The position numbers and the translations under genes were made by a program. A stretch of DNA of 64,000 nt from Rhynchobatus australiae (lineage: Eukaryota), in NCBI GenBank assembly GCA_034780895.1, contig JAUZTB010000001.1, forward strand, positions 44,172,841 through 44,236,840, written 5' to 3'. This document shows, in pieces, positions 1,016 through 63,248 of this stretch. Numbering within the stretch: the stretch's first letter is position 1; each line of letters starts with the position of its first letter. Under the pieces are notes generated by a model. That model saw only the letters and a list, made by a program, of their open reading frames with translations, was not told the DNA's origin and searched no databases.

Positions 1016-1132
1016 CTTAAAAGCTGACTCCAGACTTCCAGAATCATGAAATGCAAGGTTCAGCACCGAGCCCAGGCGTTGGTCAAAATCATATATACAC
1101 GCCATGTATCTGCAGTGATCAGACAAAAATTC
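1016..1132 (-). CDS. DNAH11-like coding exon 9 (gene continues beyond the window start)
   Basis: ctgcag|GAA...AAG|GTATTG, 117 nt. Encodes EFLSDHCRYMACIYDFDQRLGSVLNLAFHDSGSLESAFK. Confidence 0.92.
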
Positions 1133-1350
1133 CTGCAGAGTGCAATGAATACATTTAGATTTGTGAATAATTTAGTTTACATTATTTATTTTTAAAACAT
1201 ACTTTTATAATTGAATACAAATACTAAACAAAATTCTTAAGTCTTTAAATTGGCACAAGACCCATTACAAAGTTTAAAGTTAACTTTAGAATGCAGATAC
1301 TGCAAAATGCAACTATATCTGAAGTTTCACTCCTTGAAAGAGAGCAGTAC

Positions 1351-1518
1351 CATATTATCGCAATCCAGTGGATCGTACTTGCTATCTCCAAATACTCGCC
1401 AACATTCCTGAAATTCTTCATTGATACTGTCAAATTTTTCATTGAAAGCTTTTCCTTTGGAACCTCCTATTACAATTTTCTCTAATTTAAGAAATTCAAT
1501 AGCAGTGGTGAAGAGCTC
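1351..1518 (-). CDS. DNAH11-like coding exon 8
   Basis: tttcag|GAG...ATG|GTACTG, 168 nt. Encodes ELFTTAIEFLKLEKIVIGGSKG...SKYDPLDCDNM. This frame is not in the ORF track. Confidence 0.9.
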
Positions 1519-2206
1519 CTGAAAGCAAATTTACAATGAGCAACTAACCTTTAAAACCATGAACATGGTATCTTATGAATTTTGTTTCATAGAATCATAA
1601 AATGTCACAGTACAGGGGGTAGTCATTTTGTCTTCATGCCTGTGCCAGCCCTTTGGTAGAACTATCCAATTAGTCCCACTTCTCCACCATAATGCAAACA
1701 TTTTGCCTTCACAGATATCAAACTCTCTTTATAAAGTTGTTTTCAAATCTGCTTCCACCATCCTTTCCCTCAAATCATAAAAACATTGGTCATAAAAATT
1801 ATTACATTGTTTGCCATTCCTTTGGGAATCACCATTAAACTATTTCCTTCAGTTACTGACCCCAAGGCTAATTGAAACTATTAGATTCTACTCACCCGAA
1901 ATAATTACTGAATTTCAAATTCCTACATCAAACTTCTTCTGTTCCATAGGAACAATCCAAGCTATTGTCCTTTGACACAAAAGTCTCTCAACCTTAATGT
2001 CATTCTAGTACACCTCTCCAAGGCTTTTTTATCTCTCTCAATATGTGGTATCAAGAGTGGACATTTATCAAAGTCACATTTATCTTCTATTTTCTATAAA
2101 TATCAGCAGTAACAATTAGAATCTTTAAACTGATAATGCTGAGATACACTAAAATAGGTACTATTAACAGATCTTTGTTTACACACGTATAACCGAGTTT
2201 ACTCAC

Positions 2207-2440
2207 CTCAGTTTTCAACAATCTGTCAAGAAACCTATCAAAATGAGCAAAGACCATTTGTGATGGGAAGTCCCAGTGCTTCACTTCCAATGTGCTGTTG
2301 TAATAGCAGGAAATCTTTAATCTGTGTTGATGAAAACAATTCTTGAAGGTTTTGAATACATGTATGGTAACTTGCACCTTCTCTAATGCCTCTTCAATCT
2401 CAACTTTAAAAATCTCTTCAGGAACCAGATAATTTAAAGC
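2207..2440 (-). CDS. DNAH11-like coding exon 7
   Basis: aatag|GCT...GAG|GTGAGT, 234 nt. Encodes ALNYLVPEEIFKVEIEEALEKVQV...WDFPSQMVFAHFDRFLDRLLKTE. Confidence 0.93.
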
Positions 2441-3395
2441 CTATTGACAAAACATACAAATATTGAAATTAAAAATAATGAATATTTATAGTACATGCAC
2501 ACAAGACAACAGCTGATAAGGGACTCCAAATACAAAGCTTCTCAACTGAAATTCTGTTATTGTCAAAAGATCAAACTTTTTTTTAATGACTTTTGTTTTA
2601 TTGTTGCTCTCAGCTGCTGTGGTTACATCAATCAAATTCAGGAAAGTTTTGTAGAATATATTCAAAAATCACATTTCACTTCATGAAAATGTCATAGGAC
2701 TCTTTCAAAAATTGTCCAGAAACAAGTAAATGTAAATAAGATGAATCACAACAGTTCTGATCACCATAAATTGCTTAAAAAAACAGGTTTAAAAGGACTT
2801 CATCTAATATTAACAAATCCATAAGGGTACATAGAATACAGCNNNNNNNNNNNNNNNNNNNNNNNNNNNNNNNNNNNNNNNNNNNNNNNNNNNNNNNNNN
2901 NNNNNNNNNNNNNNNNNNNNNNNNNNNNNNNNNNNNNNNNNNNNNNNNNNNNNNNNNNNNNNNNNNNNNNNNNNNNNNNNNNNNNNNNNNNNNNNNNNNN
3001 NNNNNNNNNNNNNNNNNNNNNNNNNNNNNNNNNNNNNNNNNNNNNNNNNNNNNNNNNNNNNNNNNNNNNNNNNNNNNNNNNNNNNNNNNNNNNNNNNNNN
3101 NNNNNNNNNNNNNNNNNNNNNNNNNNNNNNNNNNNNNNNNNNNNNNNNNNNNNNNNNNNNNNNNNNNNNNNNNNNNNNNNNNNNNNNNNNNNNNNNNNNN
3201 NNNNNNNNNNNNNNNNNNNNNNNNNNNNNNNNNNNNNNNNNNNNNNNNNNNNNNNNNNNNNNNNNNNNNNNNNNNNNNNNNNNNNNNNNNNNNNNNNNNN
3301 NNNNNNNNNNNNNNNNNNNNNNNNNNNNNNNNNNNNNNNNNNNNNNNNNNNNNNNNNNNNNNNNNNNNNNNNNNNNNNNNNNNNNNNNNNNNNNN

Positions 3396-5320
3396 GCCAG
3401 AGGAGCTGTAGAAGTGGGTACAATAATGATGTTCAAAATGTATTTGGACAGAAAAGGTTTAGAGGGATACGGGCCAAACACAGGCAAACGTGGCTAGCTC
3501 ATATAGACAGCTTGGTTGACGTGGATGAGTTGGGCTGAAGAGCGTGTATACATGCTGTTTAACTATGACTCTAAGCTAAATGACTGGAAGTAATGTAGCG
3601 GAATGAGTACAATGTGGAAAAGTGTGACCTTATCCACTAAAACAAATGCTGAGTATTTTTCAAATGCTGAGAGACTGGAAGACATTGGCACTCAAAAAGG
3701 ACTTGTGTCTTTGTACACACATCACTGAAAACTAACACGCAGGTCCAGCAGGCAATGAAACAAAAGGCAAGTTGGCCTGATTATTAAAAGATTTGAGTAC
3801 AAGAGTAAAGATGTCTTACTACAATTATCTAGGGTCTTGATGAAATTACACCTGAAGTATTATGTACAATTTTGGTCTCCTTACCTAAAAGTATATACAG
3901 TACACTTGCTATACATAAAATGAGCAATTTTGAATTTATTCTACAAACTTTCCTGACTAGACTGGATCCTTGGAAAGCATGTGCAGCATTTGAATTGGCT
4001 GGTTCTCTACTCTCCAAGCACAAAATTCTTAGCGGGCTCGGCAAGGTCAGTATTGGAAGGTTTTTTTTTCCCTCCTAGCCAAGGAATCTCGAACTAGGGG
4101 CCAGTCTCAAAATTAGGGGCAAGCTATTTAGAACATGAAAAATAAGAACAGTACGCCACCTGACCCTTCAAACTTAGGCTGCCATTCATTAAAACCATAG
4201 CTAATCTTCTACCTCAATGCCATTTTCCAGCACTTTCCCTATATCTTTGATTCTCTTAACATCCAGAAATCTACCCACTTTGAATGGTCACAATGGATGA
4301 GCCACCACACCATCCAAATGAAGAACTATCACCTCATTCCATTCCTAAACCACCTACCCTTTATTCTGAAACCATTCCTTTGGTCCTAGATTCAGTCAGG
4401 TGAAACATCCCCACTGTATCTCATCAAGCCCTTAAAGCATGTTTTGACAAGATATCCTTTCATTCTTCTCAGGTCTAGAGAATACAGTCCCGATTTATTC
4501 AAACCCTCCTTATACAACAAAGCCCACCATTGCTGGAACCAATCTATTGAAACCTTGTTGCACTATGACAACTACATCCTTTCTTGAGTAAGGAAACTAA
4601 AACTACCTACAGTGCTCCAGGTATAGTCTCACCAAGGCCTTAAAGCAATTGCATTAAGCCTTCCTTACTCTTGTATTCAATCTCATAAAGACAAACATAG
4701 CATTTTTCCTCTCAATCATTTATGACATTTTCTTGTTGTCCTTCAGCAGCTTGTGTACAAGAGCATCGAAGTCCCTTTGAACATCAACACTACTCAACTC
4801 TCACCATTTAACAAATACCTTGTTTTTCTATTAAGTGTATCAAAGTGGATTCCATATTAAATTCCCCCCAGTCCCACAGCTTANNNNNNNNNNNNNNNNN
4901 NNNNNNNNNNNNNNNNNNNNNNNNNNNNNNNNNNNNNNNNNNNNNNNNNAAACCAGGTTCTCTCACTGATATCGAATGTGAAAAGCACCAAACCCCACAG
5001 AACCTCACTGTCCACAGCCTGCCACACAATAACCTATTTATTCCTACTTTGGTTTTTTTCCCCTCCAGCCTACTCTTTTGGGACTGAAATGAGAAATTTC
5101 TTTGGATAACGATGAATCTTTGAAATTCTCTCCACTGGAGGGTTACGGAGGTTGAATCATTGCATTTAAAATGGACTTCTACAAATTTCTGGGAATTAAA
5201 GATAGAAAGCAGAATAGACAATAAAATGTTTGAGGTAGAGGATCATCCCTGACTGACCTTGTGTAATGGCAGGGCTGGCTTAAGGGTCCAAATGTCCTAC
5301 TCTCACTTCTATTTCATTTG
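3396..5320. mobile_element. Cluster of decayed or nested CR1-type LINE fragments on both strands
   Basis: CR1 tail 3396-3572 (+), RT remnant ~3575-4130 (+), reverse-strand fragment ~4135-4860, and a plus-strand continuation ~5090-5320. Confidence 0.7.
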
Positions 5321-5794
5321 TACTTGCACCAGCCGCTTCAACGTTGTCATCCATTACAAAACTCGTGATTCAAAATTGTGATGCGGCAAATAAGGGTAAT
5401 GAATAGGATGCAACACTTCATACATTATATTCATAGAGAAAAATCATTATGTCAAACCTTTGGCTGAATATGTACAAATCTATACTTAAAGCTAATAATC
5501 CAGGATGCACAGAAGTATTTTTTATTTGAAGCACCAACTGTTTCAATGCATTTTCAGTTATCTTTCCTCCATTATTATTGAAATAGTATTTTATAAAAGC
5601 ATTATCTTCATGAAAGATAGACTGGAAACCTTTTTATACTCATCAGAAAAGTTATTTATAATCTGTTGCCACAATTGCAATGGCACAAGGAATACAATTT
5701 AGGAAAATTTATGACCATCGTATACTTTTGTAAATAAACTAGTAATTCAGGATACACAAAGCTCAAGGTATCACCATATGCATTATATTCTTAC

Positions 5795-6006
5795 CTGGTT
5801 GATGATTAAATTGCAGAATTCTTGTAGCAAGACAATAATTCTTGATGGGAAACAATAATATCTGGAATGGCTCCATATTAAGCAGATAGTGTGGAAAAGG
5901 GGAGTAATAAGTTGTTCAATTTCAGGGAAGTTTGATTCTTCCAGTTGGGAAAGATGATATTTCAAAGGTCGAAGATGCAATTCAATGTCCTGAGCCTCTG
6001 AGACAG
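5795..6006 (-). CDS. DNAH11-like coding exon 6
   Basis: ttgcag|CT...CAG|GTAAGA, 212 nt. Encodes [12 protein letters not shown]...[36 protein letters not shown], very close to recalled DNAH11. Confidence 0.95.
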
Positions 6007-7196
6007 CTGCAAATGAGGATTGACGATTATTTTATGATGATTAAGTAACACCTCTAAGAAAACATTGAGGACTTAAAAGATACCTTGGAACATCACCTGT
6101 GACAAGTCAGATAATAACTACTGTTTGGGTTACATTGGGCATTTGCAAATGTCTTCCAATTGTATGATAGGAAAAACAACCCAAAATTACTTTTTATTGC
6201 TATTTCACACCTAGTTAAGAGCACAGGGTTATAAACAAGACCAAGGTTATAAACCAAAGGATTTTTGTTTATAATTATTTACAGCTTTAAAATATCAGTT
6301 TTAATACACGTTTTAAAGCCTTCAAATTGTCACATTTCAAAATGCAGATTCCATTTTAACGTTTAATTTGTTAACAATGAATGCAGTATTTTTAATGTAT
6401 TTTTCCAGGAATTTATTTTGTAGGACTTGCCTGGAGGAGTGATACAAAAAGCAAACATACAAACAACCATATGAATAATATTTTTAAAATGCAAATTCCT
6501 GCAGCATGTGACAAAATAAAATGCTGGAAAGATACAACAAGTTAATCATTATTAGGCAGTATCAGACAATTCAAGTCTTTTGTCCAGCCTGAATTTGAAG
6601 ACAAATTCTCAACTTTGCAACTACAGGTCAGGAGAAATGGGAGAAACAGGTCTTTGAGATTGGATGGGGAAAAAAAAGCAATAAAAATCTCAACCAAAAT
6701 CCCAAAGAAGGCAGTCATCTGTCAAAATTCCTACTTCTCTCTCTACAGCTGCCGCCTTTACTGCTGAGTATTTCTAACATTGTGTTTTTAAGTTTGCAGC
6801 ATCCACAGTACTTTCCTTCTGCATTTCTGCTTAGGAATAGTCTGAGCATAAGGAAAACAATAATATACAATAGTCTACAATGTTCATCCATGTACTGATA
6901 TTGCTGCTTCCAGGCAGCTGTCCAAATCCCAGCGTCTCCCCTTTCAGTTGTTTTCTCTTGACACCAACAAAATATGCTCAATACTTTGCATGTACTAAGA
7001 AACAATGTCAATTTAAAAGTTCATCTTAGATGCATCACTTGCATTTGCTTCTGAAAATAGGATGAAATAATAGTTCTTAAGTGTTTTCTAAATTTCAGGA
7101 AGTCTTTCAGTTTAACATATCCAGATGCCTGGTTATTTAATTTTGAAACACACTATACGACTTTTCATAGTTCACTATCTTATAGCAGTGAGTTAC

Positions 7197-7296
7197 CTTC
7201 TCTTAATTTTAAGATAATGTTTTTGAATGTGGAGTAGTAGCTGCTTCTTGTAATTTTCAGAATATCAGCTATTTTGCAAACCTTGGGATGCTGGAG
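7197..7296 (-). CDS. DNAH11-like coding exon 5
   Basis: ccttaag|CTC...G|GTAACT, 100 nt. Encodes LQHPKVCKIADILKITRSSYYSTFKNIILKLRE. Not in the ORF track. Confidence 0.88.
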
Positions 7297-7689
7297 CTTA
7301 AGGAAACAATTGTAGAGTTATTATCATTAAAATTACTGCAGTAAAGTCAATCTTTTCTGATCTAAAATGATAAAATATCTCATCTTAATGTACAGATATA
7401 TAGGTACTAAATTTTGAGGAAAAGTACTGGCACTGCCAAGCTGCCAGCATTTCCCCTATGCAATTGCCAGCAAGTTTGGAGTTTTGAATTAAGAATTTGC
7501 ACATTTGTGCACGCAAAATCAATTTCCTGACAGTATATTCATGCTGTCTTCTTCATGAAGACTGGTATTACAGTGAAGTTGCATATCCTTATCCTGGTGA
7601 ATACCACCAACTTGAGTTTGCCTTTTATACTAGATCATTGGGAACCACTTGACAACTACCATTTGCAAATAAAAATAGACACAAAAACG

Positions 7690-9232: not shown

Positions 9233-9422
9233 CTGTCTATATATTCCAAGCAAGTTTTCTTTTCTTGCTATCCAGAAGTAAATTTCTGCACTTGGTATAG
9301 GATTGAATTCTTCAAACAAGACTTGGGCAGAATCTTGCTTGATAATATCCATTACCTGGTGTGCCCATTGAATTACCATGGATTCAACAGAATGAAGTGT
9401 TGATCTGTCCACTTGTGGAAGG
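9233..9422 (-). CDS. DNAH11-like coding exon 4 (start of the DHC_N1 region)
   Basis: tgtag|C...CAG|GTTGGT, 190 nt. Encodes LHSVESMVIQWAHQVMDIIKQDS...PSAEIYFWIARKENLLGIYRQ. Confidence 0.92.
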
Positions 9423-11968: not shown

Positions 11969-12168
11969 TTATCTGGACTTTCCACATCTTGAGTTTCAAA
12001 GACACTTTCAGGAACTAGAGGCAATGGCAAAATAGTTTTCCCTTCCATTTGTCCATGAACAACAAATATTTTGCTTTTTATAGTTTCTACATGTCTTTGG
12101 ATATCATGTGACACAGCCTGTGGCCACCCTGAATGAATATTTGTATTGGACAGAACAGGAACCAGAAC
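11969..12168 (-). CDS. DNAH11-like coding exon 3
   Basis: atgcag|GTT...AA|GTATGC, 200 nt. Encodes VLVPVLSNTNIHSGWPQAVSHDIQRHVE...GKTILPLP. Confidence 0.9.
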
Positions 12169-16201: not shown

Positions 16202-16441
16202 CTGAACATCAGCGTGCAGGGCTCCGCCAGTTCCAGTAAATAGCAGCAGCCTTTCGTGCTGCTTCTCATCAAGGAAGCCCAATAGTAGTTTCTTGTTTTC
16301 ATCCTCAGCAATGAACCTATTCCACCTCTCTGANNNNNNNNNNNNNNNNNNNNNNNNNNNNNNNNTTATAAAATCTATTCGCTCTTCTCCAACACGAAGA
16401 GTGGATACAAGAGTGTTTGTACCAACTTTCTCTTCAGCCAT
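16202..16441 (-). CDS. DNAH11-like axonemal dynein heavy chain, coding exon 1
   Basis: ATG at 16441. Encodes MAEEKV...ERIDFI[gap]SERWNRFIAEDENKKLLLGFLD...ADVQ|GTACAA, resembling DNAH11 [22 protein letters not shown]. Confidence 0.75.
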
Positions 16442-16731: not shown

Positions 16732-16830
16732 CTGGTGTCCACTCCAGCCAGTGCGATGGGATTCCAGCTACCTCGTGCTGGATGAGTTTGCTCAGAGGGA
16801 ATTCGCTGGGTTTCTCCCGTCGCTGGACAG
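16732..16830 (-). other. Probable non-coding first exon of the dynein gene (5' boundary unknown)
   Basis: Donor CAG|GTAAAA at 16731 just downstream of the CpG-rich region. Matching acceptor ctcttcttccatcccgacacag| at 16461, 19 nt before the ATG. No ATG in 16830-16732. Confidence 0.5.
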
Positions 16831-16831
16831 C

Positions 16832-17147
16832 CGCGCGCGTCTGCCCAAACCCGCGGCACCCGCCCGCGCGCGTCGGCCCCAACCCCCTGCACCCCCCCCC
16901 GCGCGTCTGCCCAAACCCGCTGCANNNNNNNNNNNNNNNNNNNNNNNNNNNNNNNNNNNNNNNNNNNNNNNNNNNNNNNNNNNNNNNNNNNNNNNNNNNN
17001 NNNNNNNNNNNNNNNNNNNNNNNNTCCCGCGCGCGTCTGCCCAAACCCGCTGCCCCCGCCCGCGCGCGTCTGCCCAAACCCGCTGCCCCCGCCCGCGCGC
17101 GTCTGCCCAAACCCGCTGCACTCACCCGCGCGCGCGCGCCTGCCCAC
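16832..17147. repeat. GC-rich 33-bp minisatellite in the dynein promoter CpG island
   Basis: Unit cgcgcgcgtctgcccaaacccgctgcccccgcc starts at 17028, 17061 and 17094, with variants at 16832-16924. A gap lies inside the array. Confidence 0.9.
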
Positions 17148-18621
17148 ACCTGAACCCTCGTGCGACTGACCGCCCGGTAATGTGATCAGCTGCTCTCCCC
17201 TGGTTAACTGATAAGGCACAGCCAGGTTCGCACTCTGTTTTAGTTGCAACAAACGCGCGAATAAAGATGTTTTATGGAAAGGAGAAATTTTAAATTGCAG
17301 AGTTATTAGAGTTTGGCTGGTCTCCATTCATGATATAAAAACATAATTTTTAAGGTATTCGGCAGGGTCACAGATCTTCCTGAATATTTGCAGCATTTTC
17401 TGTCTACATTTCAGATTTGCAGCATCTGCAGTTTTGTTCGGATTTTCAGTCTCCCAACACGGTCTATTTTGACGAAATGTCATCCACTTTCAATGCTAAT
17501 TCTGTTTCTCGCTTCACAGATGGTGCCTGACCTGATGAGCATTTCTAGCAGCTGCACAACAATTCACGGATAGTTTACAGGCCAATTAATATTTAAAACG
17601 TTCTTTATTGGAATGTATCTACCTTCTAGAGATAGCAAACTGTAAAGTTATTTTGAGCTCGGAACAGTTGCTCAGAGGCAGTCAGTTGCATTCTGAGTGA
17701 ATCGCAAAATATATCTTAAGTGCTGGGACATTACGCTTCTACATTGTTTCTTCATCTTCGTCATCCAAGATGTGCATATTTAATGTTTTGCCCTAATGGT
17801 AATCCTTGTTAGGAGAGGTGTCTTTTAAAGATTGCTATTGTTGTTAACTATCTTTAACAGTCAGGTGACATCACAAAGTGTAGTTGTTCAACACAGAAGC
17901 ACATGGTGAAATTGCTGAATTATTTATGTATTTTTTTTTACTTTTTTAGTAGGCACTGAATGGTGCTATTATAGTACCTTCTCACTCTTCCAGATCTTTA
18001 GTTGAAGTAAACTTAACAAGATATGAGACAAGCTAAGTGAAGGAAAGATTAGGAAGAATGGTGTAACAGTAAAGCCGGATATCATCGAGCTGCATGTGGA
18101 AAATGATTCCACATTAGACAAGAATGGGAAAGAGCTTGGCACGTTTTATTAAAAGCAGCAAAAAGGAAAGCACCAAGGCACCAATGACTTACATTTACGG
18201 ACTTTCAAGGAGCTTAGTAGCTGTTGCCAGGATAGAATTTTAATTTAAATGTTTAATTAAGGTGCTGGAAAGACGAAACAATTCATAGAAGTACTTCACA
18301 GAGAAAACGGGACCTGAAAATGTGATAGTTATTTTGAGGATAGGTCAGCTTTTTTGAGGGGTTGATGCAATGATTTTGAAAAGTCATTGATAAAAAACAT
18401 TTACAATTTCAATTTGGACTGGGTGCTGGGAAGAGAAGTTGGGTGGTCACTTTTAGTGAGAATGGATACGGAGCTGAATCTCAAATATGACAGAAAACAA
18501 GAGATCAACTAGCTCACAAAGCAAATTCATGGTCAGTCTGAAGCAGCCAGAGATGGCTCCATCATAAGCAGATGAATAGACAGTCCAGTTCCTCACTTCA
18601 AGGATGAAAGTCGAGGGAAAT

Positions 18622-25834: not shown

Positions 25835-26163
25835 TTAGTCCATACAGTCATCCCCACCAATTGNNNCTAACTGTATATCGGTATTATGCAACATTTCTTC
25901 AGTATTTGCACCATCAGAATGATCAGTTCCAATCCCTTCCATATGACCCTGCTGAATGTTTGCTATTACAGGTGACATAATAGTTCCTCCTGTTGCAAGG
26001 ATACCAACATCTGAGGCAGATGTCACTTCCATTGATGATATAGCTGCACTGTTATGGCTGGAAAGGTTGCCTCTCTTGTTCTGATGTGTTTTAATGTGCT
26101 TTGAAAGATGGTCACTTCTTATAAAGCGCTTGGAGCATTCTGGGCAGACAAATTTTTTCTCAC
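25835..26163 (-). CDS. SP3: SP3 last coding exon (zinc finger 3 and C-terminus)
   Basis: ctgcag|GT. Encodes [30 protein letters not shown]...IANIQQG...TAA, an SP3-type tail. There is a 3-N gap at 25864-25866. Confidence 0.95.
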
Positions 26164-31479: not shown

Positions 31480-32190
31480 AGACTCTAGAGAACTATGCCG
31501 GTTAATTAATAGCAGGAAACAAATGGAAGATATGTCTAGTCGATTTTTCTTTGCATCAGTTTTCACTGTGGAGGACACTGCAAATATCCCAAAAGTAACA
31601 GATGGACTAATTTCCAATAACTAGGAGGAAGCTGTAAAAGTCCCAATCACATGGAATGAAATAGTAGAGAATGATGGATGGCACATAAGGGTTTTAAAAG
31701 AGGTGGCTGCAGATATAGTTAACCCATTGATTAAAATTTTTCAAAACTCGCTAAATTCAGGAGGGTACCAGAAGATTGGAAAAGAACCAGTGAGACTTGC
31801 TTCTTCAAAAAAAAAGGGAAGGAACTACAGACCAGTTTAACATCCATTGTTGGCAAGATGCTTGAGTCAGTAATCAAAGAGGAAATAACTATTTAGGAAA
31901 ACTGAATATAATCAAAATGTTAACATGGTTTTATGAAAGGTAAAGCATATTTGACAAATTTGCCTGAATTCTTTGAGGATGTGACAGGAGGAGCTGATAG
32001 AGGGGTACCCATAGATGTAATGTATTTACATTTCCAAAGGCATTTGACAAGGTACTACATAGGAAGCTGGGACATAAATTAAAAGCCCATGGTGTTGGAG
32101 GAAGTGCATTAGCATGGATTGATAACTGCCTATCACATAGAAAACAAGGAGTTGGAATAAACTGGTCCTTTTTCAACCTGGAGGGACTTC
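31480..32190 (+). mobile_element. CR1-type LINE, RT N-terminal fragment
   Basis: Degenerate NYRPV, HGFMKG and FDKV motifs (gaactacagaccagt, catggttttatgaaagg, gcatttgacaaggta). Confidence 0.8.
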
Positions 32191-32545
32191 ACAAGTTCCT
32201 GCCCTTAGATTAAATATTTTTAAACACCCTTCACTGAAATATAACCTTATTAGTCAACAGCATTGCAGCTTCTTAAGGTAAAGAATCTAATTAGAAAAAT
32301 ACGCTTAGCTTATGAAAATCAAAAAAACCAGATGCTGGAAATTGGAAGCATTATTTTTGACGTTGAGCCATTGTACTGCATGTAGAATAGTGCTTGTAAA
32401 ACTATAAAACCCAGCTCTCAATAAAACCTCAAAGAGCTCTGCTAAGAACAATTCAGAATTCACAAGGTACAAACAGTAACTTAGGTCAAGACGTATGAAA
32501 TTCTACAATATCATCATCTTAGAAAGGCAGAAGTATGAAAATGAC

Positions 32546-32745
32546 CTGTGTGTGTTTTTCTGTGACGTTGTAGCTCATCACTGCGAGTGAACCGTTTTCC
32601 ACAAAACACCCAGTTACACACAAAGGGTCGTTCTCCTGTGTGCCAGCGAAGATGAGCTCGAAGGTGGGATGTTTTTCCATAAGTCTTTCCACAACCTGGA
32701 AAATGGCATATATGCTGCTTCTTCTTGCCCAAGTTACTGGAGGAT
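32546..32745 (-). CDS. SP3: SP3 coding exon 6 (C2H2 zinc fingers 1-2)
   Basis: ccccag|A...G|GTCATT. Encodes [63 protein letters not shown]. Confidence 0.95.
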
Positions 32746-36287: not shown

Positions 36288-36510
36288 CTTCCCAAGACAT
36301 CCTTACAATTAGGACAGGTACATGCAACTCGGCGAAGTCGTTTTCCTGGTTGATACTGCTGGTCACTTGCATCCTCATCCAGGTTCACAGATACTTGTGC
36401 TAACTCACTGGAACCAAGGACTGATGCATTTCCCACATTAGTCACTGTAGAAGGCTGTGATGCTAGTTGCCAGGATTCGGAGTCATCTTCTTCTTCTTTT
36501 ATTTGAATAT
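36288..36510 (-). CDS. SP3: SP3 coding exon 5 (IKEE SUMO/inhibitory motif and buttonhead box)
   Basis: ttccag|AT...AG|GTATGC. Encodes IQIKEEEDDSESWQL...GKRLRRVACTCPNCKD; phases 1/2 fit the neighbouring exons. Confidence 0.95.
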
Positions 36511-45781: not shown

Positions 45782-48700
45782 GTACAGTGGCTGCAAAAGG
45801 GACTCCAGAATGGTGTGTTGCCTCCCTGGTGCTGGGGTCCAGAGAGTCAGAGTGACTACAGAACATTCTTGAGGGGGAGGGGGAGCAGCTAGAAGTCATT
45901 GTGCACGTTGGCACAAGTACCCTGGTGCTGGGGTCCAGAGAGTCAGAGTGGCTACAGAACATTCTTGAGGGGGAGGGTGAGCAGCTAGAAGTCATTGTGC
46001 ACGTTGGCACAAGTAACAGGTTGAGAAAGGGATGAGGTTCTGCAGAGTGAATATAGGAAGCTAGGGAAGAAGTTAAAAAGCAGGACCCTGAGGGTAGTAA
46101 TCTCTGGACTACTTCCAGTGCCGTGTGATAGTGAGGGCAGGAATAGGATATGGCAAATGAATATGTGGCTGAAAAATTGATGTAGGGGGCAGGGATTCAG
46201 ATTTTTGGACCATTAGGATCTGTTCTGGGGTAGAGGTGACCTGTACAAGAGGGATGGGTTACACCTGAACTGGAGGGGGGAACCAATATCCTGGTAGGCA
46301 GATTTGCTGGTGCTACTAGGGCGAGTTTAAACTAGATTAGGAGCAGGTGGGATCCTAAGCATCAGAGAGGCAAGTGAAAAGCTGGAAAGTGATGCACAAT
46401 TCAGCGACAGCAAGTTGAATAAGCACAACAGGCAGGATGGCAGCCAGGAGAAAGGAAAGCCTATTGGATTAAATTGCAAGAGGTCTGACAGGTAAGGCTG
46501 ATAAATTTAGGGTTTGAATAGCTATATGGGGCAGGGATATTATAGCCATTATGGAGACATGGCTAAGGGTGGGATAGGGCTGGCAGCTTAATGTTCTGGG
46601 CTTTAGGCGGGAGGAAAGAGGAGGAGGGGAGCTGCATTTTCGATTAAGGGGAATGTCACAGCAGTGGTCAGAAATGAAATTACTGAAGGATCATCCAGTA
46701 AGGCTTTATGGGCAGAGTTGAGAAATACAAAGGGGACGATCACATTGTTGGGATTGTATATGCCTCCAAATTGTCAATGGGAATTAGAAGAACAAATATG
46801 CTGCAGAGTTTTAAGAATATAGGGCTGTCAAAGTAGATTTTAACTTTCTAACATAGACTGGGACTGCCATACTGTTAAGGGCTTAGATGGGGTGGAATTT
46901 GTTAAGTACATTCAGGAAAGTTTGCTTGGGCAATATATAGAGGGCCCTACTAGAGAGAGGGCAAAGCTCAATCTACTCTTGGGTAATAGAGCAGGGTAAC
47001 TGACTGAGTTGACTGGGGAGCACTTTCTGATCAGTAACCATATTCCTATTGGTTTTAGAGGCCCTGGCCAGGAAAAAGGAGGCATGGGTCAGGTAAAGGC
47101 AACTAAGATCAATTTAATCGCTAGAAGAATACAAGGGATGCAGAAATGTACTCAAGGAGGAAATCAGGCAAGCAGAAAGGGGCATGAGACAACTCTAGCA
47201 GAGATTACAAAAGATTCAAAGAGATTTTATATGTATATTAAGAGAAAAAGAGTAACTAGAGAGAGAATAGGGCACCTCAAAGACCAAAGGGGACACTTCT
47301 GTGTGGAGCCACGAGAGCTGGGCAAGGTCCTTAATGAATATTTCTCCTGTTTTTAATATGGAGAAAGACATGAAGACTTCAGAACTAGGAAAAGTAAATG
47401 GGGAGGTCTTGGGGATGATCTGCATTATAGTAGAGGAGGTGATCTCCAGGGCCTGACCAGGTTTATCCAACACTGAGAGGCCAGAGAAGAAATTGTGGGA
47501 GCCCGCACTGAGGGCTGCATCATCATTAGCCACAGATGAGGTGCCAGTAGACAGGAGGGTAGCGAATGTTGTGCCTTTATTTCAGAAGGGTAGCAAATAA
47601 AAACCTGGGAACTATAGGCCAGTAAAGTCAAACATCTGTGGTAGGTAAGTTACTGGAAAGGATTCTGAGGGATAAGATATATGTACACCTGGAAAGGCCG
47701 GGGTTGATTAGGGATAGTCATCATGGCTTTGTATATGGGATTGAGTTTTTTTTGATGAGAGGACCAAGAAAGTTGATGAAGGTAGGGTGGTAGGTGTGGT
47801 TTATATAGACTTCAGTAAGGCCTTTGATAAGGTTCCACATGATAGGCTGCCCTGGAAGGTTAGATCACATGGAATCCAGGGAGAGCTGGCTAATTGGATA
47901 TACAACTGGCTTGTAGGTAGAAAAAAGATGGCGATGGCAGAAGGTTGTTTCTTGGACTGGAGGCCCATGACTAATGGTGTGCCACAGGGGCTGATGCTGG
48001 GCCCATTGTTGTTTGTCATCTATANNNNNNNNNNNNNNNNNNNNNNNNNNNNNNNNNNNNNNNNNNNNNNNNNNNNNNNNNNNNNNNNNNNNNNNNNNNN
48101 NNNNNNNNNNNNNNNNNNNNNNNNTGCCACAGGGGCTGATGCTGGGCCCATTGTTGTTTGTCATCTATATCAATGATTTAAATAAGAATGTACAAAGCAC
48201 GGTTACTAAGTTTGCAGATGACACTAAAATAGGTGGTATAGTGGACAATGAAGGTCATCAAAAATTACAGGGGAATCTTGATCAGCTGAGTAAGTGGGAC
48301 AAGGAATATCAAATGGAGTTTAATTTAGTTAAGTACGAGGTGTTGCATTTTGGAAAGTCAAATCCAGGTAGGACTTTCACAGTGACTGGCAGGGCCCTGG
48401 GGAGGGCTGTAAAACAGAGGGACCTTGGAGTACAAGTACATGGTTCACTGAAAGTGGAGTCACAGGTACAGGGCAGTGAAAGTGGTTTTTGACACACTGG
48501 CCTTCATAAGTCATGACATTGAGTATAAAAACTGGGAGGTTATGGTGTGGTTGTACAGGACTTTAGTGAGGCTGCACTAACTATTGTAACCACATTAGCA
48601 TTCTGTTCAGTTTTGGTCACCCTTCTATAGGAAGGATGTTATTAAACTGCAAAGAGTGCAGAAAAGATTTACAAGGATGGTGCCAGGACTTGGGGGACTG

Positions 48701-49122
48701 AGTTATACAGAGAGGTTGGACAAGCTAGGACTTTATTCCTTAAAGCATAGGAGACTGAGAGATTGTCTTATGGAGGTGTATAAAATCATGAGGGGCATAG
48801 ATAGGGTGAATACAGACTTTCCCCCACAAAGTTGGGGTATCAAGGACTAGAGGACATAGGTTTAAGGTGAGAGAGGAAAGATTTAAGAGAAACATGAGGG
48901 GCAACATTTTTTATTTTTACACAAAGGTTGTATGCATGTGGAATGAGCTGCCAAAGGAAGTGTTTGGAGCAGGTACAATAACAATTTTTAAAAGACAGTG
49001 GATAGGTACATAGATCAGAAAGGTTTAGGGTCTAATGCTGGCAAATGGGACCAGCTTGGGTGGGGCATCTTGGTCAGCATGGACCAGTTGGGCTGAAAGA
49101 CCTGTTTCCGTGTTATATGACT
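45782..49122 (+). mobile_element. Near full-length decayed CR1 LINE (ORF1 esterase, APE endonuclease, RT), antisense in SP3 intron 4
   Basis: ORF1 SGNH-like VIVHVGT / RVVISGLLPV / DGLHLN, endonuclease remnants, and RT motifs VYIDFSKAFDKVPH, GVPQGLMLGPLLFVIYINDL and KFADDTK. Multiple frameshifts. Confidence 0.92.
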
Positions 49123-49279: not shown

Positions 49280-50735
49280 TTGAATTGTGTGTACCTTGTA
49301 ACTGAATGCCTGAAGTGAATGAATTCACAGTTGCTGTCTGCAATTGTGGGCTACTAACTGTTAATGGAGCTGGTGCAATTGGAGTCAATGCTCCACTGGA
49401 TGCTACTTGGCCCAATGTAACAGTATGCACTGGAGTAAGAGTTATCTGCTGGGTTGGTGCATTCTGAATTTGCACATTTTGCAAGTTCTGGATGTTCTGC
49501 ACCTGAAAGGTTTGCCAGGCAATTTCTCCAGATGGGGTTAACGTTGGGGCTCGTAATATCAGGGAGCCTGCATTTTGGACTACTTGTAGTTGAAGATTCT
49601 GCAAGGCTTGCTGAGGAACAGCTTGTGCAGTAATGGTTTGTCCTGCAATTGTCTGTATTGCCTGCTGCGGAATACTCTGAACAATCTGTGGCTGGACAGC
49701 ATATTGTTGATGTGACTGAAATTGAATTTGATGGTCAGCTGATTGCGAGGCCGAACCTTGTATATCTTGTAACTGTGTTTGATCAACAGTAGGCTGGTTC
49801 ACATGAAGATCAGTTGTTGCCTGTATCTGGTCAGAGGTTGCAGTAGAATTACTACTGGAAGTTTGTTGTGCAGTATCAATATGATCATCTGAAACAACCA
49901 TATGACCCACTGAGGTTGTTGGCACAAACGAAGCTATATTAGTGTTAGAGTCACTAGAAGCTGAATTCTGCACAGCTACAGAAATACTCTGATCATCTGT
50001 CCTTGCTGAGGTATCTATAGTATTTATAGCTTCTGATGAAACAGGTATCATCTGGCTTGAAGTTGTAATTGCTGTAGCATTACTCTGAGTCATGGACTGT
50101 GAAGTAGGTGTTCCCTGCGAATCAACATCAACATTTCCAATCGGCACAAAAGCAACATTTCCTGTTAATCCAACAGGGACATTAGTGAGAAGCTGTGTTT
50201 GACCAGGGTAAGTACCACCACCATAGGCAACTCCTTGGATATGCACCGGGACATGTGCATTACTCTGCTGTATTTGAACTGAAACAGTCGGCGACATAAG
50301 ATTTTGGGTGGTTAGAATATTGCCTGAAGGAGTCTTACCGCCAATTAATGCTTGGCTAGTGCCAGGAATAATTTGAATTTGGCCATTACCATCTTGCTGC
50401 AATGCTGTTTCCGTATTAGATGAGCCTAAGCTCAGCTGCAAGTGTTGCCCATCTCCAGTCTGAATTTGTGGAATAACTTGATACTGAACACTAGGCACTA
50501 CACCCGTTGCAGCTGTGGATGATCCTGGAGCGACAGCAAAGACCTGCTGGTTCTGCAAACCTTGTAAAACATACTGTCCACTTGTTGGTACAGAAGCAGT
50601 GACAGGAGATCCAGGAACCTGTCCAGTAATTTGCACAAAATTACCTGCAGTATCTTTTGTTACTACAGTGGGTGCTGAAGTTATTAGCTGCCATCCATTT
50701 GATGCTGCTAATTGTGCAGAAGCCAAGTCAAGGGG
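49280..50735 (-). CDS. SP3: SP3 coding exon 4 (Gln-rich activation domains A/B and Ser/Thr-rich region)
   Basis: Polypyrimidine acceptor ttcttctag|CCC, donor A|GTAAGT, 1456 nt open. Motifs DLASAQL, VQYQVIPQIQ, QQALQNLQLQ, WQTFQVQ and QQITLTPV match SP3. Confidence 0.95.

Positions 50736-55923: not shown

Positions 55924-55926
<3 letters not shown>

Positions 55927-55962
<36 letters not shown>
55927..55962. repeat. (GT)n microsatellite
   Basis: About 18 perfect GT units. Confidence 0.97.
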
Positions 55963-55964
<2 letters not shown>

Positions 55965-57454: not shown

Positions 57455-58092
57455 AAGTTTGGGCACCCCGCTCAAAATTTCTGTTACTGTGAATAGTTAA
57501 ATGAGTAGAAGAGTGAACTGATCTCCGAAAGTCATAAAGTTAAAGATAAAACATTCTTTTCAACATTTTAAGCAAGATTAGTGTATTATTTGTGTTTTGT
57601 ACAATTTTAGAGTAAAAATGGAAAGGAGCACCATGCAAAAGTTTGGGCACCCCAATAGATTTGAGCTCTCAGATAACTTTTACCAAGGTCTCAGACCTTC
57701 ACTAGCTTGTAGAGTCCATGGCTTGTTCATAGTCATCGTTAGGAAAGGCCAGGTGATGCAAATTTCAAAGCTTTATAAATACCCTGACTCATCAAACCTT
57801 GTCCCAACAGTCAGCATCCATGGGCTCCACTAAGCAGCTGCCAAGCACTCTGAAAATTAAAATAAATGATGCCCACAAAGCACGAGAAGGCTATAAGAAG
57901 ATAGCAAAGCATTTTCATGTAGCCGTTTCCACATTTCGTGATGTAATTAAGAAATGGCAGTTAGCAGGAACAGTGGAGGTCAAGAAGACCAACAAAACTT
58001 TGAGAGAACTGCTCAAGGATTGCTAGAAAGGCAAATCAAAACCCCCGTTTGACTGCAAAAGACCTTCAGGAAGATTTAGCAGACTCTGGAGT
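57455..58092 (+). mobile_element. Tc1/mariner transposon of IR/DR type: left terminal repeat and transposase N-terminus (defective)
   Basis: Direct repeat aagtttgggcacccc at 57455 and 57639. ATG at 57820 starts MGSTKQLPSTLKIKINDAHKAREGYKKIAKHFHVAVST (paired-like HTH), then frameshifted TAKDLQEDLADSG. Ends at a gap. Confidence 0.88.
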
Positions 58093-59799
58093 NNNNNNNN
58101 NNNNNNNNNNNNNNNNNNNNNNNNNNNNNNNNNNNNNNNNNNNNNNNNNNNNNNNNNNNNNNNNNNNNNNAAAGCCAAGGCATCTTTCAGCTGCTCCCCT
58201 AGGTGTGACAAAAGTAATTGTTAATTTGTCAATTAAAACCATCATCCATCCTTTCTTGTTATGTATTGGCAATACCATTAAGCACAACAGGTTAGCAAAT
58301 ACAATGAGTGGAAGCCATTTTAACAATACATGTATAGTTTTCTCTAGATGTGTCAAATCAATTTTCTCAAACTAATTCAGCATGCAAGAAACAATGTAAT
58401 TATCTCCCCAGATAGCATGCCAGTAAATTTAAGAACCAAAATAATGCGTCTATTCCTGGAAGTCAATTCCATGGTGCCCAAATTTCATGCTAACTTTCTA
58501 AGCAGAATACATAACAAAAGAAAAGAAAATTCATGAAATTACACACCACACTTCCACGACCTTAGGTCATTTGATTTAATTAAACCACAATTAACCAGTT
58601 AGCCAGAAAGTGATAACCACATACTTAGCATAACTTTATGCATCAAGGATTCACAATCAGGTTTAAAAAAAAATTGAATGGTTATGGTTCCTTGCCAGAG
58701 TATTTAAAATTTTAAACTTGACCATGTTAGCAGCTGAACTGAATTATGCCACAGAATTTAGGAATGTTAATTTTACATATGGTGCTCATCTGCCAAACAG
58801 CAGACTGGACAAACCAATTAATCAAATTTGCCAATTAAGAGTTCTATGATCTGATAACTATATTGTGAAAAAACTGTGGAATAGCAAACAATCTGGAGGA
58901 ACAGCTCCATAGGGGAAAAGGAACTGTCAACATTTCAGGCTAAAACCATGCATCAGGACTGAAAAGTGGACAATTGCTTCCCCCTGCCCCCACTGATGCT
59001 GGTCAACCCGCTGAATTCCTCCAGCAGATTGTCTGTTGCAGATTCCAGCATCTACAGCAATCTCCTTCATGTCTATGGGTATATGGAAACAGAGTAGTGC
59101 TGTCATCACACTTCTTCCAGAGAAGATCGAAGACTGTATTTGGTAAATTTGGCATGAAGGGGGAATACTGTCATATGCTGGATAGCACTGACGTGGAACC
59201 TAGTTACTGAAGAGAGTTCCAAAATGATGACTACTAGATTGTATTTGACTGTGAAGTGTCAGATAACCAAAATTTTTACTGCATTTGAATTTCAACAGCA
59301 TGGCTACTTCTACAAGCAAAAAAAAACACTTTTTGAATGTGATTTTGTTCATCCAACACAACGTTTATATCTCAGCATGGGTGGGAAATAGAAGAGAAAT
59401 AAGATACACCCTCATTTGGTAAAATAAGTATATTGTGACGGCACAAAGCAATATATAAACATTACAGGGAAACCCAAGTGATTTCCTAGTTGAAGGTCAA
59501 ATAGAACTAGACAATCTATCTTGTTCTTCACAAGACAACTGCATTCAATTTTTAAAAAAAACACATTTTTTCATTTAGGAGATCCTTTTAATTTTACCAA
59601 ACATTAACAGGGGACTAAATGCAGCTCTATTCAAGTCTGGCAATCATTTTCATTTCATTGCACTTGATTACGAAAAAATCGCTATGAATACACATTCTGG
59701 AAAAGATATAGATGCCTTTCAAAAATAAATCCCCACTTTTAACACCGTGTTTTCATTAAAACTGGAGAAGACCACAATGATGAACATTTAAATCAATGA

Positions 59800-60125
59800 A
59801 AGCAGTCCAGCAGTGAGCTAGTAGAACCTGGTTCAATCATGTCGTCGCGTACTGTCTGTGCAATGTTTGCACATTCTCCCTTTGGCCACATGGATTTCCT
59901 CCGAGTTCTCTCATTTCCTCCCGCATCTCAAAGAATAGGTTGGTAGGTTAATTGGTCAATGTAAATTGTCCCTAGTCCTTAGGTGAGTGATAGAATCTGA
60001 GGGAACTTGACGAAAATGTGGAGAGGAAAAGGGATTGATGTAGGATTAGTGTAAATGAGTAGTGGGTTGATGCCGACTTGGTGGGCTGAAAAGTATGTTC
60101 CTATGCTGTATATCACTATGACTAA
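59800..60125 (+). mobile_element. V-SINE (HE1-like)
   Basis: V core tttgcacattctccc...ggtaggttaattggtcaatgtaaattgtcccta and tail ctatgact. Confidence 0.78.
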
Positions 60126-61384
60126 TGAATTGTTTCGGCAGGCAAGATTCCAGTGACAACTGTATAAGAATTTGCTTAGTGTAGATTAACAAACACAATA
60201 CAAAACCTAGAGAGACATCTGTAACTGGTTGTCCTTTCAAGGCATGATTGTGGCAAAATTCTGCAAAGCAACCAGTGGCTGAGAATCAACGTCCCAAATA
60301 AAACAACAAAATGGTAACAAACATATGCAAAAGAATTCCAAGTATTAAAATGCTGAGAATTTTCTGTACTCAGCAGAACATTTGAACATATGAAATATGC
60401 AATGTTTGTTTCACCACAAGAGGATGGAAATACAACTAATAGGCAAAGGTAAATTTGCACACTTCCATGGTAGTTAAACTGAGAGGGACTAAAAGTGAGC
60501 TGACATATTGGAGGTTCTTTATTACCTACAGAGTCGTCAGTTTTTATTTATTCTAACATTGCAGGCACTTCTTCCAATATCCCACGTTTATTTTGTAACC
60601 AAACAGGCGCATCAAGAGGCATTAAAGATCAGAACAACAATTAGCTAAATAATTTTGGTACACTAAGAAAAAGAAATTATTGTAACGTTATGGATCCTGC
60701 CTTTTCCATTAATGGTCCAACTAATATTTTCAGAAAATATAAACTGTTTGGANNNNNNNNNNNNNNNNNNNNNNNNNNNNNNNNNNNNNNNNNNNNNNNN
60801 NNNNNNNNNNNNNNNNNNNNNNNNNNNNNNNNNNNNNNNNNNNNNNNNNNNNNNNNNNNNNNNNNNNNNNNNNNNNNNNNNNNNNNNNNNNNNNNNNNNN
60901 NNNNNNNNNNNNNNNNNNNNNNNNNNNNNNNNNNNNNNNNNNNNNNNNNNNNNNNNNNNNNNNNNNNNNNNNNNNNNNNNNNNNNNNNNNNNNNNNNNNN
61001 NNNNNNNNNNNNNNNNNNNNNNNNNNNNNNNNNNNNNNNNNNNNNNNNNNNNNNNNNNNNNNNNNNNNNNNNNNNNNNNNNNNNNNNNNNNNNNNNNNNN
61101 NNNNNNNNNNNCCACAATTTAAGGGTGTCAAGTTGCCAAACTCTCAAAATATCTTGACTTTTTTTTCCACCACATGGAATCAAATGATAACACTGATATG
61201 AAACATGTCAGTGAATTTTTGCGGTTTAAAAAGGCACCACCCAAACTCCTGAGAGGGTGTGAATTAGTCAGGGGCTTACACAAGAACTGTACACATGTAA
61301 ATTTAAACATGTAATTCTCAATGCCTTCAATAGATAAGAATATTCAAACTTTGAATACAAACCCTAATTTGAGAATCTGAGGTT

Positions 61385-62270
61385 AAATGAAGGCAGTGGA
61401 TTTGATGTAGTCTACATGCATTTTTGCAAGGCTTTTGACAAACACTTGCACGACAGACTAGTCAGAGTTGTGAAAGTTCATGGGACACAAGTGACTGTGG
61501 CAAATTGCATCCAAACTTGTTCAGTGGCAGGAAGTGAACAATAACAGCTCATGGGCATTTTTGTGACTGGAAGGGCTGCACAAGACTCAGTATTTGAACC
61601 TTGCTTTTAAAAATGTTTAGACCCAAATATAGGAGGCCATGATCTGATTCAAAAGTTAGCCATGTGCATAACAGCAAGCAGGGATGCTTCAGACTGCTGG
61701 AAGATGTAGATTGTCCAGCCAAATGAGCAGAAAAATGGGAAATGGAATTTAATCCAGAAGTGCAAGATAGTGTATTCGGAAAACTGCACCAAGAGAATGT
61801 ACCATAAATGGGTGGATTTTAAGGTGTAATAGAACAGAGTCCCTGGAGTGTATGCACATTTAAACACAGCAATACAGACAAGTAAGTTAGTTAAAAAGGC
61901 ATTGAGATGCTACCCTTTATTAGCCAAAGTATATACCAGAGCAGGAAGGTTATGCATACAAGTTGGACAACAGCCTGCAGACTGTGTATAATTTCAATTA
62001 TGTTACAGAAAGACAACTTCACTGGAGAGGATGCAGAGGAGGCTTAATATAGATGCTGTCAGAACTGGAAAAATGTACCTATAAAGGAAATACTGGATAA
62101 GAGGTAGCTGTGAGAGATGTATACAATTACGAGGGGTCCAGAAGAGCAAATAGGAAGCAGCTATTTACCTTGGCAGAGGAAGACAAAAAAAAACAGCTGG
62201 CATAAATTTAAAGCAACTGGTAGAACATTAGAGGGGAGAAGAATAAAATGTTCCTTTTCAACCAGCATAT
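61385..62270 (+). mobile_element. Decayed CR1-type LINE
   Basis: gatgtagtctacatgcatttttgcaaggcttttgacaa (DVVYMxFxKAFDK) and later ORF2 remnants. Confidence 0.75.
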
Positions 62271-62748
62271 ACACAAGGGGTTGAATTGCCTCCTATTGTG
62301 TCTTAATATTTTAATGATACAAAATGGAAGTATTTGTTGCTGATAATGGAAGCTATCAATTGCATGAAATTTAATTTGCCTTAATCAACACAAGCCTCAC
62401 GGATATGGACAATTTGCAAGGGGTTAAGTCATTACAAATGCTTTTAACTGTTAAATGACTTTATTCCATCACCAGTTAGTACCTCAATGTTGTACGAAAT
62501 AGTTTTCCTTGAAGCTTACATTATCCTCGGATTCACTTACCAGTTTAGACAAGCCGTTATGCCTGCCAATTTTTTTTAAAAATGGCACCTTAAGTACGTC
62601 GACAGCAAAGGCCGAGTTCGTAGAAGTTCATTGCACCAAATAATTAGGCTTTTGGTAATGGTATTTTTGGGACGGGGGTGGGGGGCAATCCGGCGATATT
62701 TGATCATTTGTTTTAATGCGTGTTTATACAATTATCTAATAGACTCAC

Positions 62749-62853
62749 CAGCCCGGCTCCAACTGTTGTGGTAGCTCCAGCGGTCTCCGATGGCGGCGAC
62801 CCGATCTTGCTGCACGTAGCTGCCAGCAGTGCAAGCGGTGACGGCTGAATGTT
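62749..62853 (-). CDS. SP3: SP3 coding exon 3 (Sp box)
   Basis: gggtag|AAC...CTG|GTGAGT, 105 nt. Encodes NIQPSPLALLAATCSKIGSPP..., which contains the Sp box SPLALLAATCSKIG. Confidence 0.92.
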
Positions 62854-63044
62854 CTACCCACAGGGGGCGGGTTTAGGAGGAAAGTGGGTGTGAATTAGTC
62901 CGGGGCTTACACAGGAAGTAACCGTACACATCAAAATTTAAACATGTGAACACACACACCAACATACAGCAGCCTGTTTACGAGTAAACTGCGAGACAAA
63001 AGAAAGCGCGGGAGGGAGTGAGCGCGGCCCGGGGCCGAGCTTAC

Positions 63045-63128
63045 CTGTGCCACTGTGCTGGAGATACTCGCTCTGCTTGTCCACGTCCAGCGCAGCCATT
63101 TCCTCCTGCTTCACTGGCTTCTCCGGAG
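63045..63128 (-). CDS. SP3: SP3 coding exon 2
   Basis: Acceptor cgtag|CT, encodes APEKPVKQEEMAALDVDKQSEYLQHSGT, donor G|GTAAGC. 84 nt, ends in phase 1 (see frame finding). Confidence 0.9.
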
Positions 63129-63241
63129 CTACGGGGGAATTAGAGAGAAGAGATGAAGGGTAGAGGAAGATCACTGGGCTGCACCGCCGGCCTGACTCGG
63201 GCCGGGCCGGGCCTCCCCGCCGGGGCGCCTGCACAACCTAC

Positions 63242-63248
63242 CAGTCAT
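63242..63248 (-). CDS. SP3: SP3 coding exon 1 (ATG ACT G)
   Basis: Minus strand reads ctATGACTG|GTAGGT. Spliced to exon 2 it gives MTAPEKPVKQEEMAALDVD, the recalled N-terminus of vertebrate SP3. Confidence 0.9.

Follow-up and report, generated by a model that had tools for sequence, protein, structure and literature searches.

In mammals, loss of DNAH11, the SP4-linked outer-arm beta dynein heavy chain, results in ciliary dyskinesia and situs inversus, and human airway and left-right cilia need this gene. In the parts of their paper used here, Dong et al. 2010 (PMC2831330) describe SP3-CDCA7 and SP4-CDCA7L as paralogous blocks from the second round (2R) of vertebrate whole-genome duplication, and report a remnant in human, a non-coding stretch of the SP3 block on chromosome 2 that can be aligned with a DNAH11 exon region (the SP names are swapped in their prose, not in their Table 4). 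This remnant is the predicted leftover of the paralogue treated in those parts as lost and not linked there to a living orthologue. Among the three zebrafish beta chains given in the excerpted text of Yamaguchi 2018 (PMC6008050) is dnah9l, whose row in Table 1 stands directly below that of Dnah11/DNAH11 in a plain-text layout that is ambiguous; the kinship of dnah9l with DNAH11 was probably already drawn in that table. Here we analysed a window, the whole of a 64,000-nucleotide stretch of the ray Rhynchobatus australiae (C1:44,172,841-44,236,840), in which all genes described lie on the minus strand: an SP gene, named SP3 below, and the start of an outer-arm-type dynein heavy chain gene, which we followed through 400 kb left of the window. 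We found that this dynein is already known, being a misnamed member (dnah9l) of a known family and not a new or shark-specific gene; that it is very probably the sister copy of DNAH11 and a working gene, present here as a whole gene of 75 exons; and that DNAH11 itself is almost certainly dead in this ray lineage.

Over 4,063 residues, the joined window gene shares 96.4% identity with a sawfish RefSeq protein. Identity is 91.4% with stingray, 85% with shark and 78% with chimaera, and proteins of gar, coelacanth, frog, lizard and cyprinid reach 69-74%. Values within its own clade are 69-96%, as against 64-67% for DNAH11 proteins, and they point to a ray close to the sawfishes as the likely animal. 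Trees were built with FastTree (46 rows) and with a quick IQ-TREE search (25 rows, LG+G4, Shimodaira-Hasegawa-like approximate likelihood ratio test, SH-aLRT), the rows excluding gamma and inner-arm dyneins. Both trees contain two sister clades (SH-aLRT 100), the SP3-linked type and DNAH11, each with chimaera, sharks, rays and bony vertebrates; since both clades hold both groups, their split precedes the divergence of sharks and bony vertebrates. The window gene groups with sawfish and stingray inside the SP3-linked clade, which also holds the 'heavy polypeptide 9 like' proteins of gar, coelacanth, piranha and seabream together with lungfish, frogs and two lizards, and 13/13 rows of the dnah9l orthogroup fall in one branch (SH-aLRT 100). 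The tree check proposed in the initial annotation thus places the protein as sister to the DNAH11 clade and not nested in it. At the level of class, it groups with DNAH9, DNAH11 and DNAH17 as outer-arm beta chains (DHC4). Approximately unbiased (AU) tests on 12 rows rejected a union of the window clade with DNAH9 (p 1e-93) or with DNAH17 (p 4e-106), and likewise a lineage-specific duplication of the window gene from the dynein copy on contig C98 (p 2e-80). That C98 gene, flanked by an SP gene on one side and a CDCA7-family gene on the other, falls inside the DNAH11 clade with sawfish and skate; the window gene was accordingly rejected as the DNAH11 orthologue, its place being in the sister clade, and the C98 gene fits instead.

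The closest described gene is dnah9l, known from zebrafish, gar and coelacanth and belonging to the same clade as the window gene; Ensembl and UniRef list it as 'dynein, axonemal, heavy polypeptide 9 like', RefSeq as 'DNAH11' or 'DNAH11-like'. The published zebrafish dnah9l probe primer, once translated, gives a motif present in 3/174 proteins compared, all of the SP3-linked type and one of them from Danio. Only the setting distinguishes the ray gene: zebrafish also retains dnah11, which this ray does not. The name dnah9l is misleading, because the sister of the gene is DNAH11, and the labels foreseen for it in databases (DNAH11 or DNAH9-like) do occur, as DNAH11, DNAH11-like and DNAH9-like. 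Its retention in this cartilaginous fish, also foreseen, holds but is not peculiar, as dnah9l is found in ray-finned fish, coelacanth, lungfish, frogs and at least two lizards as well. Searching with a frog member as query gave 1,061 proteins. In a comparison set of 120 proteins longer than 1,400 residues, 108 were nearer to the SP3-linked type and 12 to DNAH11. Twelve species had both types among the proteins examined (chimaera, seven sharks, sawfish, coelacanth, bowfin and lungfish). Two lizards were the only amniotes with the SP3 type among the 120 matches listed of these 1,061, and no such protein from turtle, crocodile, bird, mammal or skate was among them, which is only a hint given the word-based search and the length limit. 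No stingray protein of the DNAH11 type was among the matches listed; together with the skate gap, this makes further reciprocal losses among batoids possible. Intron positions do not separate the paralogues, DNAH11 matching 27/31 acceptors and 31/34 donors and DNAH17 matching 34/41 and 37/40.

Nine exons of the dynein gene lie in the window:

16202..16441, minus strand: exon 1 of the dynein heavy chain (dnah9l, DNAH11 sister), with the ATG at 16441; the sawfish protein begins with identical residues
15471..15611, minus strand: exon 2 (splice sites, open frame)
11969..12168, minus strand: exon 3 (splice sites, open frame)
9233..9422, minus strand: exon 4, in which DHC_N1 starts (open frame, Pfam)
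7197..7296, minus strand: exon 5 (splice sites, open frame)
5795..6006, minus strand: exon 6, DHC_N1 (open frame, Pfam)
2207..2440, minus strand: exon 7, DHC_N1 (open frame, Pfam)
1351..1518, minus strand: exon 8 (splice sites, open frame)
1016..1132, minus strand: exon 9 (splice sites, open frame); the gene continues left of the window with 66 more visible exons to C1:43,947,255

These exons have AG/GT borders throughout and, once joined, give an uninterrupted frame of 534 codons (11 of those in exon 1 are N), in agreement with the open frames and consistent splice phases first reported for them, and DHC_N1 scored above the Pfam cut-off in 3/3 window exons scanned. The whole gene has 75 visible exons over ~242 kb and ends at C1:43,947,255, with 68/74 exon junctions in frame, one of them artificial where the exon end is N. 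Frameshift-aware alignment covered 75/75 modelled exons and 4,089 codons with 0 stops and 0 frameshifts, so that the intact appearance noted from the nine window exons extends to all visible downstream exons. All 11/11 dynein exons scanned matched the Pfam order DHC_N1, DHC_N2, AAA_6, AAA_lid_1, AAA_8, AAA_9, Dynein_heavy, Dynein_C. The P-loops GPAGTGKT, GVAGTGKS, GNAGVGKT and GVGGSGKQ (Walker A of AAA1-4) and the AAA1 Walker B motif CFDEFNR are present, and the exon for the AAA3 Walker B lies inside an unread gap. Exons of the stalk region are open, with 85-97% aligned identity to stingray and shark proteins whose records carry PF12777; the single exon scanned there matched AAA_8, not MT. The protein is changed at 30/1,223 otherwise invariant columns (2.5%), compared to 1.9-3.0% for four batoid references, with the sawfish orthologue at 1.9%, and its terminal branch is 0.020 compared to 0.019 for sawfish. 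At C1 ~44,095,190, in AAA1, it has R two residues past DWGLR, where 24/24 other aligned beta chains have I or V. One intron is GC-AG (C1:43,969,376). A GC-rich imperfect tandem repeat spans a 100-N gap at window ~16,800-17,150, 360-700 bases upstream of the ATG. A candidate exon at 10549-10308 was dropped for its broken frame and lack of a homologue.

The DNAH11 orthologue on C98 presents the opposite picture. Aligned to skate DNAH11 as reference, it carries 13 stops and 12 frameshifts in 19/56 aligned exons; one stop falls within a frameshifted insert, and a short inversion inside one exon (L145 ~3321-3354) accounts for two more, leaving slightly fewer than 25 independent events. By the same method we counted 0 lesions in the window gene (75 exons), in the DNAH9-like gene (48 exons) and in the DNAH17-like gene (56 exons). 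Further lesions appeared against sawfish DNAH11 and at the 3' end, and five of the stops are Arg to TGA, a pattern that would fit CpG decay. The gene is altered at 67/953 otherwise invariant columns (7.0%), and its terminal branch of 0.082 is about four times that of sawfish (0.019). A tblastn search with a clade member found at least four beta-type loci in the genome, and no intact DNAH11-type copy is among them, so that DNAH11 here ranks as a unitary pseudogene; two further beta-type genes, both on C62, have solved DNAH9 and DNAH17 as best matches, by modest margins. Full-length DNAH11 protein records exist for sawfish and three skates. The initial annotation had taken the window gene for an extra ciliary or flagellar motor; in this animal it is not one, because the SP4-linked DNAH11 is a pseudogene. 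The DNAH17-like gene, otherwise clean, has one in-frame TAA at C62 ~9,768,097, near an N run and in an exon outside the 56-exon set, which may reflect an error, an allele or the onset of decay in this sperm-type beta chain.

We examined lesion sites in five of the 13 listed runs, using single contigs of depth 5-13 among the rows listed. Run X1 (organism A) is identical to the assembly over L145:1-2086 and 3303-3601, spanning six lesions. In run X2 (organism B), no differing letter is seen at the L145:160 stop and no gap at the 913 insertion, but the two-base deletion at L145:173 and both L146 lesions are absent. Run X5 (organism D) is without all five lesions checked, run X7 (organism E) is without the two L146 lesions, and in run X3 (organism C) the lesion sites are not covered. 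Introns of the compared runs are still about 95-97% alike. DNAH11 likely died before the split of A and B and after their divergence from D and E, judging from these shared and unshared lesions, although this reading is only moderately firm because it draws on single contigs of such depth.

The two dyneins occupy matching places in their neighbourhoods:

C1 43.74 Mb, plus strand: DEP-domain gene
C1 43.945 Mb, plus strand: CDCA7-family gene, tail-to-tail with the dynein and ~1.6 kb from its last exon
C1, minus strand for both: the dynein, then SP3, between CDCA7 and OLA1
C1 44.26 Mb, minus strand: OLA1
C1 44.42 Mb, plus strand: SP9-like gene
C1 45.56 Mb: Hox13
C98 64.91 Mb, minus strand: SP8-like gene
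C98 65.41-65.47 Mb, plus strand: SP gene
C98 65.49-65.82 Mb (65,490,300-65,818,600), plus strand: dynein (DNAH11)
C98 65.823 Mb, minus strand: CDCA7-family gene
C98 66.09 Mb, minus strand: DEP-domain gene
C98 105.1 Mb: Hox13

Thus CDCA7 was found on the left and OLA1 followed by an SP9-like gene on the right, as had been expected, and the separate SP4-linked DNAH11 that was to be looked for is present on C98. Two exons of the C1 CDCA7-family gene score 98 and 94 bits against solved CDCA7, compared to 80 bits for the corresponding C98 exon. From human gene order we take the DEP genes to be RAPGEF4 and RAPGEF5, the single-exon SP genes to be SP9 and SP8, and the clusters to be HoxD and HoxA. The window gene shares with DNAH11 its domain order and its tail-to-tail place between SP and CDCA7-family genes, and differs from it in lying, by position, on the HoxD-type scaffold. 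Paralogous neighbours lie in conserved order on two Hox-bearing scaffolds, as for an ohnolog pair, and the proposal of a second DNAH11-class gene from vertebrate whole-genome duplication is supported by this synteny together with the sister position in the trees. In a sturgeon gene model, which its source marks as unverified, an SP piece with IKEE is fused to a dynein of the SP3-linked type, and the SP-dynein adjacency is therefore not peculiar to this assembly. Synteny and trees together suggest that an ancestral SP8/9-SP3/4-dynein-CDCA7-RAPGEF block would have doubled with its Hox-bearing chromosome before the split of sharks and bony fish, in 1R or 2R; after the doubling, human would have retained the SP4 dynein copy, most fishes both, and this ray lineage the SP3 copy. 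We consider a whole-genome rather than a segmental origin highly likely. Hox13 genes numbered three (C1:45.56 Mb, C98:105.11 Mb and C71:3.25 Mb), a fourth cluster being missing or unassembled, and a one-piece OLA1/YchF C-terminal domain with one TGA on a small contig (C2768:23,620-23,871) is likely a processed copy.

Several features of the data weigh against this account and bear on its rivals. The IQ-TREE result is a quick tree with SH-aLRT as its only support; the tree rows exclude lamprey, hagfish and amphioxus; the outgroups are the two C62 genes of the same ray, whose names depend on small score differences (472 vs 454 and 181 vs 168 bits); and the names SP3 and SP4 come from neighbours and motifs. 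It is nevertheless hardly conceivable that the window gene arose by duplication of DNAH9, as its name dnah9l would have it, or is a true DNAH11 moved or misassembled beside SP3: database names are all that speaks for this, the AU tests reject it under the model used, and a move is further contradicted by the separate DNAH11 orthologue beside the other SP gene and by the recurrence of the SP adjacency in the sturgeon model. A large segmental duplication as the source of the two blocks is very unlikely. It would agree with the dynein survey of Kollmar 2016, which dates the beta duplications near the origin of chordates and unrelated to whole-genome duplication, and the tree rows cover jawed vertebrates, but five neighbouring gene pairs match in order and orientation, Hox13 is linked on both scaffolds, and Dong et al. 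(PMC2831330), in the parts used here, assign the blocks to 2R. As to integrity, six junction gaps, with N in every one, hide ~325 residues of the window dynein, parts of three exons and the stop codon are N and could conceal a lesion, and there are a few radical private changes at conserved sites, such as the R beside DWGLR. A gene beginning to decay, or broken in its unreadable exons, would fit these features and is decidedly improbable, given 0 lesions in 4,089 codons where ~36 would be expected at the C98 rate (25 per 2,823 codons), and a branch length equal to that of the sawfish orthologue. Run X1 is possibly the assembly's own sample, the assembly is fragmented (81,522 contigs), and isolated oddities occur in it (a three-base N in SP3 and the one stop in the DNAH17-like gene); even so, it is scarcely credible that the C98 lesions are assembly errors, because the same method showed three sister genes of this assembly to be clean, run X1 contigs reproduce the L145 lesions, organism B retains two lesions, five stops are Arg to TGA and missense changes in the C98 gene are elevated as well.

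By analogy with known outer arms, the window dynein is the predicted beta head of a two-headed arm in motile cilia, whose tail would associate, on the doublet microtubule, with intermediate chains and a gamma heavy chain (DNAH5/DNAH8 class), and in which ATP turnover at AAA1 would drive doublet sliding. As a whole, we think it rather probable that the window holds the start of an open-frame DNAH11 sister between SP3 and CDCA7, likely born by whole-genome duplication, a predicted outer-arm beta motor likely covering DNAH11-type work. With DNAH11 gone, the SP3-linked copy would be the only DNAH11-class motor and might cover some of its cilia; that it stands in for DNAH11 in this way is evenly poised, and the remaining counterpoints concern this step. 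In zebrafish, the embryonic dnah9l signal is seen, in the text excerpted from PMC6008050, solely in the otic vesicle, with that of dnah11 in Kupffer's vesicle, and given this division of work a take-over in the ray needs new expression; DNAH9 could also fill in for DNAH11 instead. There is accordingly close to an even chance that the window gene is intact and no replacement, with a narrow role (for example, in inner-ear cilia), DNAH11 having decayed as DNAH9 replaced it or as its job (for example, flow-based left-right patterning) lapsed. Besides the otic vesicle signal, the 0 lesions in 48 aligned exons of the DNAH9-like gene agree with this alternative, as does a review that, in the part used here, finds no Dand5 orthologue in batoids (PMC12344233). 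On the other side, skate and sawfish retain full-length DNAH11 proteins, so that a batoid-wide absence of Dand5 does not explain the recent loss of DNAH11, and two MMP21-like genes with six open visible exons each are a weak sign that a cilia-linked left-right module persists. These two putatively MMP21-like genes (C17:22,057,230-22,064,650 and C75:14,631,000-14,643,400) are about 40-68% identical per exon, and their visible exons are open. Profile searches were uninformative on left-right genes: Peptidase_M8 gave no match and missed the expected LMLN too, DUF4556 had no match anywhere, and HEM4, intended to anchor MMP21 via its neighbour, had no match.

In our reading, the DNAH11 paralogue inferred by Dong et al. 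from the human remnant survives as dnah9l. As a probable whole-genome-duplication paralogue, dnah9l contradicts the main dynein survey, which traces none of the dynein duplications to whole-genome duplication; the tree figures in the supplement of that survey (Kollmar) may already contain these fish and shark copies. In open-access papers searched, with subscription journals largely uncovered, we did not find a link of dnah9l to the SP3 block, its identification with the living form of the Dong et al. paralogue, the RefSeq name swap, a loss of DNAH11 in a ray or a lineage without DNAH11. For sharks and sawfish the RefSeq names seem to be interchanged, with 'DNAH11' given to the SP3 type and 'DNAH11-like' to the true orthologue (P0028, P0053 and P0127 vs P0105, P0101 and P0126), and orthology-based work on the DNAH11 disease gene can therefore take the wrong copy. 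Hidden paralogy of Nodal1 and Nodal2 (PMC12344233, as excerpted) likewise involves duplicates of early jawed vertebrates with opposite losses by lineage and names that conceal them; here, by contrast, the gene encodes a structural motor of cilia and was lost recently, within one ray group. This ray lineage retains the twin that was lost in human, and the gene on which human airway and left-right cilia depend is the one it has lost. A wild vertebrate lineage living without DNAH11 makes cover by the sister motor or by DNAH9 testable, a question that bears on DNAH11 ciliary dyskinesia and on left-right symmetry breaking in cartilaginous fish. Tentatively, and with more doubt than confidence, we suggest that this lineage recently lost DNAH11 and runs DNAH11-type cilia, including any left-right organiser, on the twin discarded by mammals, with rays, skates and amniotes as a natural reciprocal-knockout series.

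The SP gene of the window has seven exons, from the ATG at 63248 to the stop at 25837-25835:

63242..63248, minus strand: SP3 exon 1, with the ATG at 63248 (sequence)
63045..63128, minus strand: SP3 exon 2, which carries APEKPVKQEEMAALDVD (sequence)
62749..62853, minus strand: SP3 exon 3, Sp box (sequence)
49280..50735, minus strand: SP3 exon 4, Q/S/T-rich region (35% identity to the C98 SP gene)
36288..36510, minus strand: SP3 exon 5, IKEE motif and Btd box (sequence)
32546..32745, minus strand: SP3 exon 6, zinc fingers 1-2 (Pfam zf-C2H2)
25835..26163, minus strand: SP3 last exon, with finger 3, the ANIQQG tail and the stop at 25837-25835 (sequence)

Its tandem arrangement with the dynein on the same strand was measured anew, with 9,393 bases from the SP stop to the dynein ATG where ~9.4 kb had been given. 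The gene contains MTAPEKPVKQEEMAALDVD, the Sp box, IKEE and the ANIQQG tail, including the motifs quoted in the initial annotation; IKEE is not in the aligned piece of the C98 SP gene. We take MTAPEKPVKQEEMAALDVD, IKEE and ANIQQG to be diagnostic of SP3. OLA1 adjoins the gene on C1, a pairing with SP3 that is also given in the part of Dong et al. 2010 (PMC2831330) used here. As assembled, the junction of exons 2 and 3 (63045/62853) is one base out of frame, which was missed in the first reading and may mean that the assembly has slipped here or that the longest form of SP3 has been lost, and a three-base N is present in the gene. The introns of SP3 hold broken pieces that presumably derive from retroelement reverse transcriptases, and one transposase-like piece, at window 31,625-32,210, 47,745-48,850 and 57,757-58,372.

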